Part shown: positions 19,884-22,404 of the stretch, piece by piece
How positions within the stretch are numbered: the stretch's first letter is position 1
Layout of the letters: each line of letters begins with the position of its first letter
From: Shigella phage ESh21
DNA length: 64,000 nucleotides
Reading direction: 5' to 3' (one strand)
Sequence record: ON528731
The notes under the pieces: model-generated
Database searches by the model: none
What the model was told of the DNA's origin: nothing
The model's input: only the letters and a program-made list of their open reading frames with translations
Translations under genes and position numbers: made by a program

Positions 19884-21299
19884 ATGAGCGAATTATTTAA
19901 CCACGCAAAATTACATGCTGGTTTGACTGAAAACGGTGCTGTTAACCATCTGACCTCAATGTCTGCCTTGGTAGACTTTTATAAGGCTGCTGGTTCAAGC
20001 CGTAACTACCCAGAGACTTTACCAAATCTGTTTTACAAAGCTCTGCGAGAAGATATCGATGTAGCGGTTCGAATCTTACTCCATATGCGAGATGCGCGAG
20101 AAGGTATGGGAGAACGTAAAGCATTCAGAACTGTCCTCTCAGAATCTATCAGAACCAACATACTTGATGAGTTCCAAGTTCTGCGTATCATGGCTAAGAT
20201 TTCTGAACTAGGTCGTTATGATGACTTCAAAATCTTCGTAGGTACTCGTTACGAGACTGATGCTTTCAAGCACATTGAGCAAGGATTGTTAGACCCAAAT
20301 ACTTCAGCGTTAGCTGCTAAGTGGTTGCCAAGGGTTAAGAAGCGTCACATGAATTTTGTAAAGCGTTTCTGCAAGTTTGCAAATCTAAGCCAGAAAGAGT
20401 ATCGTCTGATGTTATCAGCACTGTCAGATACCGTAGAGCAAAAGATTTCTGCAAATGAGTTTGGTGAGATTGATTACAGCAAGCTTCCTTCACTGGCTGC
20501 TGCACGTTATCAGAAATTGTTCACACGAAAAGGTGGAGAACGTTATGCAGAGTATGTAAAAGCTCTGACAGAGGGTACTACCAAGATTAACGCTGGTGCT
20601 GTTTACCCATATGATATCACCAAAGCTGTGAAGTACGGTCGTAGTGAAGTGGCTAATGAGCAATGGAAAGCACTGCCAAACTGGATGAAGGATGGTGAAA
20701 ACATTCTTTGCATGACTGACGTATCAGGCTCTATGACGTGTGAACGTCACGGTTCTGTAGATGCTCTTGATATTGGTGTATCTTTGGCGTTATACGTCGC
20801 AGAACGCAATACAGGGTGTTTTAAAGATGAGTTAATGGTTTACTCCACAAATCCATTCTTTATCACTCTAAGTGGCTCTCTGAAGAATCGTATGGCTCAG
20901 GTCATGTCACATGTAGAGTATGGTTCAACAAACCTCCAAGCTGCTTTTGACAGGATTCTTGAAATTGGTAAAAGAAATAACTTGACTCAAGATGCAATGC
21001 CACGTAAGCTTATCATCTTCTCTGACATGCAGTTTAACTCTGTTGATGGTCAGCGTGGTAATACTAACTTCGAAGCAATTCGTCGTAAGTATGAAGAATC
21101 AGGTTATGAAATGCCTCAGTTGGTATTCTGGTATCTGGCAAATCGTGGTGGTAACTGCGAAGTGTCTATTAAGGATAACGGAGTAGCAATGGTTTCAGGG
21201 TTCTCTCCAGCTACATTAAAGGCTCTACTTGGTGGTGAGAAGTTTGACCCAATCAGCGTAATGCTCAAAGCAGTAATGTCTGAACGTTACGATTGGTAA
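19884..21299 (+). CDS. Putative Ro60/Rsr-like protein (alpha-helical TROVE-like N-terminus plus C-terminal vWA domain with MIDAS motif)
   Basis: MIDAS DVSGSM, GSTNLQAAF, KLIIFSDMQF, C-terminal GVAMVSGFSPATLKAL resemble recalled Ro60 vWA motifs; start moved to ATG 19884 (GAGAG SD) because upstream codons overlap a promoter. Confidence 0.55.
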   Translation: MSELFNHAKLHAGLTENGAVNHLTSMSALVDFYKAAGSSRNYPETLPNLFYKALREDIDVAVRILLHMRDAREGMGERKAFRTVLSESIRTNILDEFQVLRIMAKISELGRYDDFKIFVGTRYETDAFKHIEQGLLDPNTSALAAKWLPRVKKRHMNFVKRFCKFANLSQKEYRLMLSALSDTVEQKISANEFGEIDYSKLPSLAAARYQKLFTRKGGERYAEYVKALTEGTTKINAGAVYPYDITKAVKYGRSEVANEQWKALPNWMKDGENILCMTDVSGSMTCERHGSVDALDIGVSLALYVAERNTGCFKDELMVYSTNPFFITLSGSLKNRMAQVMSHVEYGSTNLQAAFDRILEIGKRNNLTQDAMPRKLIIFSDMQFNSVDGQRGNTNFEAIRRKYEESGYEMPQLVFWYLANRGGNCEVSIKDNGVAMVSGFSPATLKALLGGEKFDPISVMLKAVMSERYDW

Positions 21300-21317
21300 A
21301 AAGTTTTAAAAAGGGTA

Positions 21318-21346
21318 TTGACAAGGTTGTTGATACCCTGTAAGAT
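21318..21346 (+). promoter_or_regulatory. Promoter inside hairpin GGGTAT...ATACCC
   Basis: TTGACA - 17 bp - TAAGAT. Confidence 0.5.
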
Positions 21347-21408
21347 GTTCTACATCGAAACGAAAAAGAGTTTTTCTAAAAGATTTTCAAAATGTTTTAA
21401 AAAACCTC

Positions 21409-21438
21409 TTGACAAACACTAAAAAATAATGTTATAGT
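21409..21438 (+). promoter_or_regulatory. Sigma70-like promoter for the tRNA array
   Basis: TTGACA - 17 bp - TTATAGT. Confidence 0.55.
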
Positions 21439-21464
21439 GGTTTCATAGAGTTTAAAAAGATTAT

Positions 21465-21541
21465 CTCTGTTTAGCTCAGCTTGGTAGAGCGTTCCGTTTG
21501 GGGCGGTAAGGCCAGAGGTTCAAGTCCTCTAACAGAGACCA
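21465..21541 (+). tRNA. tRNA-Pro (anticodon UGG)
   Basis: Acceptor CTCTGTT/AACAGAG, T-arm AGAGG-TTCAAGT-CCTCT, loop TTTGGGG, encoded CCA. Confidence 0.65.
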
Positions 21542-21548
21542 AATTAAT

Positions 21549-21623
21549 GTCGTAGAAGGCAAATGGTTAGCCACCTGACCTTCAATCAGTTGCTCGCGGG
21601 TTCGAATCCCGTCTACGACTCCA
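21549..21623 (+). tRNA. tRNA, probably Glu (UUC), non-canonical anticodon loop
   Basis: Acceptor GTCGTAG/CTACGAC perfect, T-arm GCGGG-TTCGAAT-CCCGT; loop CCTTCAA has C at position 33. Confidence 0.5.
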
Positions 21624-21627
21624 AATT

Positions 21628-21702
21628 TGACAGAAGACCAAATACAGCAAACAACTTTTACTTTTCGCGCATAGAAAACATAAAAAGCTTGGTCTGGTCA
21701 TT
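21628..21702 (+). ncRNA. Candidate small structured RNA (Y-RNA-like element E1)
   Basis: 5' CAGAAGACCAA pairs with 3' TTGGTCTGG; internal ACAGCAA motif. Confidence 0.35.
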
Positions 21703-21708
21703 AAGAAT

Positions 21709-21785
21709 CGCGGGTATAGAGAAAGGGCGTCTCACATGTCTCATTAGCATGGCAACGGTTGGTTCGACTCCAACACCCGCCTCCA
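21709..21785 (+). tRNA. tRNA with CAU anticodon (Met or Ile2)
   Basis: T-arm GTTGG-TTCGACT-CCAAC; loop CTCATTA; 1:72 is a C-C mismatch. Confidence 0.5.
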
Positions 21786-21788
21786 AAT

Positions 21789-21860
21789 TTACAGAAGACC
21801 GTTTACAGCAATTTAAAAACAATTTTATCGGAAAATTAAAATGAATACGGTCTGGTAATG
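21789..21860 (+). ncRNA. Candidate small structured RNA (Y-RNA-like element E2)
   Basis: 5' AGACCGT pairs with 3' ACGGTCT; 5' end near-identical to E4. Confidence 0.35.
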
Positions 21861-21868
21861 TTAAACAT

Positions 21869-21945
21869 GGTTAGGAAGCACATAAGGCATGTGCGGTCGG
21901 CTGTTAACCGAATGGCACAGGGTTCGAATCCCTGACTAACCGCCA
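21869..21945 (+). tRNA. tRNA-Asn (anticodon GUU)
   Basis: Loop CTGTTAA, T-arm CAGGG-TTCGAAT-CCCTG, encoded CCA. Confidence 0.65.
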
Positions 21946-21955
21946 AAATTTAAAT

Positions 21956-22043
21956 GCGTCGTTATCCCGTAGATGGAAGCGGTGGCGACTGTAAATCGCT
22001 TGTCATTACGACTCGGTAGGTTCGACTCCTTCACGGCGCACCA
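21956..22043 (+). tRNA. tRNA-Tyr (anticodon GUA), long variable arm
   Basis: Acceptor GCGTCGT/ACGGCGC, loop CTGTAAA, 88 nt. Confidence 0.65.
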
Positions 22044-22049
22044 AATAAA

Positions 22050-22127
22050 GGTTATGTAGTTTAATCTGGTTAAAATACCTCCCTGTCACGGAGGAAGATG
22101 TGGGTTCGAGTCCCATCGTAACCGCCA
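22050..22127 (+). tRNA. tRNA-Asp (anticodon GUC)
   Basis: Anticodon stem CCTCC/GGAGG, loop CTGTCAC, acceptor GGTTATG/CGTAACC. Confidence 0.7.
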
Positions 22128-22188
22128 ATTTTGAGAAGGGCTTTTTTAGCCCCTCCCTTAAAGAGTTCTTGTGAGTATTCTTTAAAGG

Positions 22189-22268
22189 AGCAGAAGACCA
22201 AATTCAGCAAGCAACAAAAATATTTCAAGCCAATTAATTTGAAAAATTTAAAACTTGGTCTGGTTCCA
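22189..22268 (+). ncRNA. Candidate small structured RNA (Y-RNA-like element E3)
   Basis: 5' CAGAAGACCAA pairs with 3' TTGGTCTGG; lies directly upstream of E4. Confidence 0.35.
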
Positions 22269-22275
22269 ACAAATT

Positions 22276-22404
22276 TACAGAAGACCGTTTACAGCAATTT
22301 AAACAATCTAATTCTCTATAAAAGAAAGGGAGAAGGTTCGATTCCTTCACACGTTACGGCGTGTTGGTGTAATGGTAGCACTTAAGATGATATGGTCTGG
22401 TAAT
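22276..22404 (+). ncRNA. Candidate YrlA-like Y RNA with permuted tRNA-like module
   Basis: Terminal helix AGACCGT/ATGGTCT encloses T-arm GAAGG-TTCGATT-CCTTC (22332-22348), closed hairpin ACACG-TTACGG-CGTGT, D-arm-like TGGTGTAATGGTAGCAC; no anticodon arm. Confidence 0.45.

Follow-up and report, generated by a model that had tools for sequence, protein, structure and literature searches.

A Ro60-like protein gene and four covarying RNA elements in the tRNA array of Shigella phage ESh21: a probable phage ribonucleoprotein module

We analyzed a 64,000-nucleotide (nt) stretch of DNA from Shigella phage ESh21 (record ON528731), a Felix O1-type phage (Ounavirinae); this whole stretch is the window referred to below. 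It encodes a Ro60-like protein and, downstream of the gene for it, an array of tRNA genes among which structured RNA elements of another kind are interspersed. An earlier note on this DNA had described a 471-amino-acid (aa) protein resembling Ro60 and, within 300 bp of its gene, a tRNA array containing several non-tRNA structured elements. The first tRNA of the array indeed lies at 21465, 166 nt past the stop codon, and the non-tRNA elements number four (E1 to E4), as recognized by a shared 19-nt pattern and by matches to covariance models. Two such models were used, R1, a covariance model of E4, and R2, a model built from 22 short elements; across the 64-kb window they find E1 to E4 only. The gene and the four elements are as follows.

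19884..21299, plus strand: Ro60-like protein gene, 471 aa from the ATG at 19884, ortholog of Bas63 gp130
21628-21700, plus strand: E1, short Y-like/Class I-like element (R2 44.0 bits, E 7.8e-9; R1 32.9 bits)
21789-21858, plus strand: E2, short element (R2 55.1 bits, E 4.4e-12)
22187-22267, plus strand: E3, short element (R2 39.4 bits, E 1.8e-7)
22275-22403, plus strand: E4, long YrlA-like element (R1 156 bits)

The open reading frame (ORF) at 19884..21299 reads as the earlier note had described it. Its translation contains DVSGSM (residues 279 to 284), GSTNLQAAF, KLIIFSDMQF, and GVAMVSGFSPATLKAL, and secondary-structure prediction gives helices as far as about residue 263 and an alpha/beta vWA domain thereafter. 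A longer product from a GTG at 19815 is possible; homologs, however, begin at MSxL. The MIDAS is complete, with D279, S281, S283, T349, and D381 invariant among 40 homologs down to 41% identity, so that the vWA domain has the DxSxS...T...D arrangement of Ro60, and DVSGSM aligns to the DVSASM segment of Ro60. The fold also corresponds to that of Ro60, with an alpha-helical HEAT-like ring (to about residue 265) closed by the vWA domain, and the whole-chain match to Ro60 far exceeds vWA-only matches. At the sequence level, the protein matches the Pfam families DUF2828 (PF11443; residues 168 to 269, 91 bits versus a cut-off of 29) and DUF7788 (PF25043; residues 275 to 455, 149 bits versus a cut-off of 27.1), and PHROG 850, annotated as "RNA-binding protein," covers it end to end (8e-172). 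A viral structure library places nearest to it DUF2828/DUF7788 proteins from phages and from giant viruses of protists (Pithovirus, Marseillevirus, CroV, ChoanoV1, and Bodo saltans virus), and TROVE-type phage proteins rank after them. The window protein has the Ro60 architecture but belongs to a separate, very large sequence family, with 5,676 clusters at 50% identity in public data (E ≤ 1e-3). Mycobacteriophage members carry the SEA-PHAGES label "Ro-like RNA binding protein," and the longer members of the family do not look eukaryote-like, as judged by Pfam coverage. The gene is 98.9% identical to its counterpart in Shigella phage ESh22; at the DNA level, 249 phage records contain it, and at the protein level, 709 do. 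A full-text literature search for DUF2828 returned plant papers and one tardigrade/mimivirus paper, and nothing else.

Each of the four RNA elements carries the 19-nt pattern AGAAGACCNNNTNCAGCAA, which occurs in exactly four copies with no mismatches, at 21632, 21793, 22192, and 22279. The chance expectation at two or fewer mismatches is 0.26, and six occurrences were found, the remaining two lying elsewhere in the window with two mismatches each. Every copy of the pattern in the elements pairs with a downstream (Y)GGUCUGG to form an inner helix, AGACC(R)/(Y)GGUCU, to which pairing in the window elements adds an asymmetric AGA/G internal loop and an outer helix of 4 to 5 bp. The module common to E1 to E4 consists of an AG-stem, an unpaired (U)UACAGCAA, a variable core, the return strand, and then CUG with an unpaired G. 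The elements are spaced 3 to 10 nt from adjacent tRNAs or from one another. E1, which begins 4 nt past the CCA of the tRNA at 21549-21620 and stops 8 nt short of tRNA-Met, has the outer helix UGAC/GUCA, the internal loop AGA/G, and the inner helix AGACCAA/UUGGUCU, followed by AUACAGCAA and the variable core. E2, located between tRNA-Met and tRNA-Asn, combines the outer helix UUAC/GUAA and the inner helix AGACCG/CGGUCU with UUUACAGCAAUUUAAAAACAA. In E3, the outer helix GGAGC/GUUCC and inner helix AGACCAA/UUGGUCU are followed by AUUCAGCAA and an internal hairpin, and the predicted fold has a minimum free energy (MFE) of -16 kcal/mol (z score, -2.26). The basal module of E4 (UUAC / AGA / AGACCG ... 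UGGUCU G GUAA, followed by UUUACAGCAA) encloses a tRNA-like domain. This core comprises a helix P2 (22306-22309 with 22385-22388), a V hairpin (22312-22326), a T arm (22331-22347, loop UUCGAUU), a closed acceptor-like hairpin (22348-22363), a U8/G9-like UG, and a D arm (22366-22380, loop AAUGGUA). In single-sequence folding, E1, E2, and E4 were not significantly stabler than shuffles (z scores, -0.75 to -1.28), and thermodynamics alone would therefore have missed them. Searches of Rfam at gathering thresholds returned tRNAs only.

Comparative evidence is more informative. All four elements are present in Felixounavirus, Mooglevirus, and Suspvirus genomes, and their helices change in a compensatory manner. 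The outer helix of E2 is UUAC/GUAA in some Ounavirinae and UUGC/GCAA in others, and the acceptor-like stem of E4 is formed by three unlike pairing sequences, ACACGU/GCGUGU, ACUCGGC/GUCGAGU, and ACCCUUC/GAAGGGU. In the Ounavirinae E4 alignment, 98.6% of cells are paired, versus 39 to 50% with slid partners. In many unrelated phage contigs, R1 picks up long relatives with a tRNA-like form next to DUF2828 genes. MAFFT by itself misaligned the distant long elements, and covariance models took its place; the resulting alignment of 25 distant E4-type sequences has 96% of cells paired (38 to 44% when slid), with double changes at the same pair in 33 of 35 pairs. Its covariation score is 0.436, versus 0.04 to 0.07 for slid and 0.125 for shuffled alignments, a value reached by none of 500 shuffles. 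For the short elements, the consensus helix is 98% paired, and all 7 pairs covary. These data bear on the suggestion that the elements are decayed tRNA pseudogenes or chance hairpins in an A+T-rich spacer, beside a generic vWA protein. E4 does have tRNA-derived T and D arms, the Rfam scores are below threshold, and a sequence-only motif profile is powerless in A+T-rich megabase backgrounds. We nevertheless regard this explanation as highly improbable, given four mismatch-free copies of the pattern where 0.26 would be expected even with two mismatches allowed, conservation with compensatory changes in three Ounavirinae genera, independent recurrence in distant phages with E values down to 1e-14, and a whole-chain Ro60 fold match far above vWA-only matches.

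We asked whether the RNA module follows the gene in other phages. Eighty viral contigs encoding relatives of the protein were fetched, and 69 loci lie outside the Ounavirinae (38 to 50% identity). Over 88 fetched loci, ACAGCAA has 186 occurrences on the gene strand and 35 on the opposite one. We also counted a motif composed of a helix (6 bp or more), 1 to 4 nt, CAGCAA, 15 to 150 nt, the return strand, and then G; the gene strand has 65 copies and the other strand 7, and shuffles have 3 to 15. Near the gene, this motif reaches a density of 0.55 per kb over the 1 kb downstream and 0.24 per kb over the 1 kb upstream, versus 0.01 per kb within the gene and 0.026 per kb farther off. R2 produced 60 matches at E ≤ 0.1 in 676 kb, all 60 on the gene strand (those in the window being E1, E2, and E3), with E values in distant phages down to 1e-14. 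By count of model matches, at least 39 of the 69 distant loci have an element no more than about 1 kb from the gene. Many element-carrying loci have no tRNA within 4 kb, which ties the element to the gene and not to tRNAs. Three loci that were fetched later and were unused in model building all keep the arrangement, with elements interleaved with tRNAs; among them, a 302-kb jumbo phage has five short and two long elements among tRNAs directly downstream of the gene, and in a 153-kb phage, one long element (60 bits) and two short elements separate the gene from an array of 13 tRNAs. Across the family, the consensus of the basal module is AAAG-helix-(U)UACAGCAA ... helix-CCUG.

The distribution of the elements also allows a reading in which they are cis-acting signals and not free RNAs, either determinants of tRNA-precursor processing or stability or untranslated-region sites for regulation of the Ro-like mRNA. 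In loci without tRNAs, a signal for tRNA processing would not follow the gene, even though the elements of the window are tightly packed among tRNAs, and a cleavage signal would have no need of the full tRNA-like domain that E4-type elements retain with compensatory changes. Regulation of the mRNA would agree with the 3'-flank position of the elements in most distant loci and with an ACAGCAA ahead of the start codon in KVP40-like Vibrio phages, which would suit autoregulation; in the window, however, strong promoter-like sites separate the gene from the elements. We consider cis-acting signals quite unlikely as the full explanation, and a cis site bound by the protein would still constitute a protein-RNA module.

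The closest known parallel is bacterial Ro60 (Rsr) with YrlA/Yrn1, in which, as in the window, a ring-plus-vWA protein is encoded beside noncoding RNAs. Chen et al. (2014, PMC4201824) described YrlA RNAs with a GNCGAAN0-1G motif in over 250 bacteria and phages, where they neighbor TROVE-type Ro60 genes. The organization of E4 is that of YrlA, with a terminal stem around a V hairpin, a T arm, a closed acceptor-like hairpin, and a D arm, all in helices that covary. The earlier note had suggested Y RNA-like elements here. The Rfam YrlA model (RF02553) gives a local match in E4 (22326-22383, 21.1 bits, E 0.019 in a narrow search), whereas Y_RNA gives no match in Rfam. Just downstream of the DUF2828 gene, the same model yields subthreshold though significant matches in Klebsiella phage FBKp34 (39.6 bits, E 1e-5) and Mycobacterium phage Samty (37.9 bits, E 3e-5), where it covers the tRNA-like core only and misses the true basal helix. 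The phage module nonetheless differs from the bacterial one in several respects. In place of GNCGAAN0-1G, the proposed Rsr contact in YrlA, all phage elements have (U)UACAGCAA directly 3' of the helix; the window protein is DUF2828/DUF7788, whereas bacterial Ro60 is TROVE; and the window RNAs are embedded in a tRNA array and not in an operon of the rsr-rtcBA type. Ro60-like proteins of the TROVE type are also known from phages. ROT/TROVE proteins occur in some jumbo phages (Iyer et al. 2021), and Ro60 of the Thermus phage phiLo binds the phage-encoded Y-like RNAs Yrl1/Yrl2 and host PNPase (2025, PMC12135203). The phiLo protein (PDB 9KOP, 9L5Y) differs from that of the window in being a TROVE protein, with RNAs that carry a CGAA motif and lie upstream of the gene, and the two proteins share 15 to 18% identity.

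A second resemblance concerns the short elements. Among 4,227 Rfam families, Dictyostelium Class I RNA (RF01414, Dicty_Class_I_RNA) aligns to them over its full length, with scores of 27.1 bits for E2, 16.9 for E1, and 25.4 and 24.7 for elements at two distant phage loci (L046 and L062, respectively); the E value for E2 is 0.059 in a 5-kb search and 0.0077 over 655 nt, with the factor for 4,227 families already included. The Rfam consensus of Class I RNAs is GaUcuCCUUACAGCAAUuaAAacAa...GagAuCUG, and that of the phage short elements is nAAAGGATnnTTACAGCAA...ATCCTGnT. Class I RNAs are about 60 nt long and have a 6-bp terminal helix with many compensatory changes, an 11-nt motif that adjoins the 5' strand and has invariant U3, C6, C9, A10, and A11, and conserved ends (AAG at the start, CUGU at the end), and they were concluded to be unique to Dictyostelia (Kjellin et al. 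2021, PMC7919456). E1 to E3 and their relatives likewise are about 50 to 70 nt long with a covarying terminal helix, their termini being read from the sequence consensus; they start with (A)AG and end with CUG(U), and the Class I motif CCUUACAGCAA stands directly 3' of the 5' strand, its invariant U3, C6, C9, A10, and A11 being the conserved positions of the phage motif. A sequence-only nhmmer profile of the short elements missed a Class I consensus planted in 1 Mb of A+T-rich random sequence, so the similarity rests on motif, helix, and termini jointly. Class I RNAs are, in addition, eukaryotic and have a DUSE promoter about 60 nt upstream, in contrast to the phage context of sigma-70-like promoters, and their one known direct binder is the RRM protein Rnp1A. 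We raise as a tentative possibility, which we judge somewhat less likely to be right than wrong, that the short elements and Class I RNAs form one cross-kingdom RNA class, whose shared feature would be a module (AG-helix, UUACAGCAA, helix-CUG) on which Ro60-like members of the DUF2828/DUF7788 family dock. The occurrence of this family in plants and in giant viruses of protists supports the idea indirectly. Were it true, Class I RNAs would be Y-RNA-like partners of an overlooked Ro60 paralog, and the phage E4-type RNAs, in which the docking module is joined to a tRNA mimic, would bridge Class I RNAs and bacterial YrlA. The match suggests, for an abundant class of eukaryotic RNAs with a function that has been an open question since 2004, a specific hypothesis of partner and mechanism.

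An ortholog of the window protein has been studied experimentally. In the PhageMaP preprint (2024, PMC11482910), gp130 of Bas63 was found to be structurally similar to Ro60, to be encoded upstream of tRNAs, and to counter the Ppl defense system, and the authors guessed that some of the tRNA genes were "possibly Y RNAs." Bas63 is Escherichia phage JohannRWettstein, a Felixounavirus, and its bas63_0130 product is 79% identical to the window protein over 471 of 471 residues. Synteny is identical to that of the window, with a DUF5681 gene upstream and tRNA-Pro downstream. E1 to E4 are present in Bas63, where they lie in the gaps between annotated tRNAs and not among the tRNAs themselves. That the protein is Ro60-like is thus already on record, in this preprint, which contains no identification of the RNAs; within the literature searched, the RNAs, their common module, and their linkage to the gene across the family are new.

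Altogether, the suggestion in the earlier note of a phage Ro60-Y RNA module gains support from the Ro60-like fold, from four structured RNAs with covarying helices, and from the linkage of gene and RNAs across phages. We conclude that this phage region is probably a ribonucleoprotein module of the Ro60-Y RNA kind in which both the protein family and the RNA recognition module are different ones. As to how such a module might work, we infer that the promoters predicted at 21318-21438 drive a polycistronic tRNA transcript containing E1 to E4, which would probably be released by the RNase P and 3'-end processing that matures the tRNAs. Ro60 itself carries Y RNA on its outer surface and takes the ends of misfolded RNAs into its central hole. 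By analogy with the binding of Ro60 to the conserved stem of Y RNAs, the basal module (AG-helix/ACAGCAA/CUG) would be the docking site for the Ro60-like protein, and the variable cores would be the effector parts. The tRNA mimic of E4 could recruit tRNA-binding enzymes or exoribonucleases, or could gate the ring. Since the Bas63 ortholog protects its phage from Ppl, the particle probably acts at the RNA level in phage-host conflict, where it would survey, protect, or degrade structured RNAs, tRNAs for instance, in the course of infection.

Several observations weigh against a ribonucleoprotein module. At the protein level, the earlier note had looked to TROVE and vWA profiles, and a Pfam search of the window protein gave no match to TROVE (PF05731) at E ≤ 1, with DUF2828 and DUF7788 matched instead; TROVE was likewise unmatched at that threshold in four distant homologs, from Mycobacterium, Klebsiella, Campylobacter, and Vibrio phages. 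Searches of PDB sequences with the single sequence and with a profile found nothing significant, the profile reaching Ro60 only at E 1.3 and in the MIDAS segment. At the RNA level, E4 (21.1 bits) misses the YrlA gathering threshold of 69 bits, and no element attains that of Class I RNA (41.5 bits), E2 coming nearest at 27.1. The pairing statistics are inflated, since the alignment of 25 distant E4-type sequences (A5) was fitted to the model structure (the margin is still large) and the seeds of A7 were selected for pairing. In about 30 of the 69 distant loci, no element was detected within 1 kb of the gene. Finally, gp130 alone, expressed without phage RNAs from a plasmid or from the T7 genome, restored growth of T7 on the ppl strain (PMC11482910), and the anti-Ppl activity is therefore not obviously RNA dependent.

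This last result is the strongest basis for an alternative in which the protein alone is an antidefense factor, for instance through contact of its vWA/MIDAS region with Ppl or a host factor, and the RNAs are separate and merely share an early tRNA transcription unit. Plaquing of T7 with gp130 on ppl was even better than in the control lacking the defense (PMC11482910), and vWA/MIDAS domains are classic protein-interaction modules, here with a complete and invariant MIDAS. However, host RNAs could have substituted for the phage RNAs in the T7 experiment, Ro60 proteins characteristically work with such RNAs, and the RNA module follows the gene, in a strand-specific manner and also in tRNA-free loci, across phage families that otherwise share nothing locally. 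We therefore view action of the protein alone as unlikely and, like the two explanations discussed above, as less likely than a ribonucleoprotein module. Given that gp130 suffices against Ppl in T7, the RNAs may modulate the particle or serve another of its functions.

Ro60-Y RNA particles are a classic and still poorly understood RNA surveillance system, and the same design appears here with a different and large protein family. The DUF2828 family gains, for the first time, a defined and covarying candidate RNA partner, embedded in phage tRNA arrays, and an annotation of "RNA-binding protein" or "hypothetical protein" in hundreds of phage genomes becomes a testable ribonucleoprotein. Considering that the Felixounavirus ortholog defeats Ppl, E1 to E4 are the obvious missing component to test in the anti-Ppl mechanism and obvious parts to carry along with the gene into therapeutic phages. 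Small coding sequences (CDSs) that overlap these RNA genes, as in the Bas63 record, can be flagged as probable misannotations. In that record (MZ501086, 12749-13023), two CDSs on the minus strand, bas63_0137 and bas63_0138, each called a "hypothetical protein," overlap E3/E4 and the region that follows E4, and both are probably misannotated RNA genes.

The remaining features around the gene and the elements are as follows.

19434-19805, plus strand: upstream neighbor gene (DUF5681, PHROG 4114), with a basic N terminus
21318-21346 and 21409-21438, plus strand: two putative sigma-70-like promoters between the gene and the array of tRNAs and noncoding RNAs
21465..22127, plus strand: flanking tRNAs bracketing E1 and E2 (ARAGORN, Rfam, and annotation of syntenic phages), listed singly below
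21465-21541, plus strand: tRNA-Pro
21709-21785, plus strand: tRNA-Met
21869-21945, plus strand: tRNA-Asn
21956-22043, plus strand: tRNA-Tyr
22050-22127, plus strand: tRNA-Asp
22407..22541, plus strand: very stable structured RNA between E4 and tRNA-Lys, with a 12-bp closing helix (CUUUGCAGUGAC/GUUACUGCAAAG)

The DUF5681 gene was considered as a third component of the module and rejected. It adjoins the Ro-like gene in every Ounavirinae locus and is absent from all distant loci, and since it is linked only within the Ounavirinae, it is not part of the conserved module. The two promoter-like sites match the consensus at 10 of 12 and 11 of 12 positions, the second with an extended TG, and from this likeness they are predicted to function as promoters. 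The structured RNA at 22407-22541 has an MFE of -47.5 kcal/mol (z score, -5.39; none of 200 shuffles as stable); it lacks the ACAGCAA module and has no Rfam match.

ARAGORN identified 25 tRNA genes from 21465 to 26200. It missed a 26th, at 21549-21620 on the plus strand, to which Rfam gives 53.7 bits and which synteny with annotated relatives identifies as tRNA-Glu(UUC). We set aside as spurious a YrlA match at 25133-25256, which overlaps tRNA-His and tRNA-Phe. Within the array, a 250-nt gap (22786-23034, plus strand) holds a strong promoter-like site at 22801-22829 (11 of 12), and weak tmRNA-like matches fall in this region (tmRNA_permuted, 30.3 bits at 22727-22913; tmRNA, 16.8 bits at 22843-23034). 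At about 23254-23337 (plus strand), a sequence called by neither ARAGORN nor Rfam looks tRNA-like by eye; its acceptor strands pair over 7 bp (UGGGACG/CGUCCCA), its T arm (GGGGUUCGAUUCCUCC) is good, and it may be an unusual or interrupted tRNA. The array also contains a 244-aa ORF at 25286-26020 (plus strand), between tRNA-Phe and tRNA-Ser.

Further observations come from the neighborhoods of the Ro-like gene in other phages. In the KVP40-like Vibrio phages (L006 at 3975, L026 at 3973, and L027 at 3974), an ACAGCAA precedes the start codon of the Ro-like gene by about 20 to 25 nt. The helix strand before it has its return strand within the coding region, and the mRNA leader could here contain a site for autoregulation. 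In the 302-kb jumbo phage (L090), genes for a Thg1-like protein (tRNA-His guanylyltransferase family) and a YqeY-domain protein (2666-3499 and 7515-7904) lie just upstream of the Ro-like gene and the array of tRNAs and noncoding RNAs that goes with it, which hints at a wider tRNA-maintenance neighborhood. In Stephanstirmvirinae-like phages (L005, 1-2658; L089, 4875-7493), the Ro-like gene comes after genes for phosphoribosyl pyrophosphate (PRPP) synthetase and nicotinamide/nicotinate phosphoribosyltransferase, enzymes of nicotinamide adenine dinucleotide (NAD) salvage, which is another conflict-related function.

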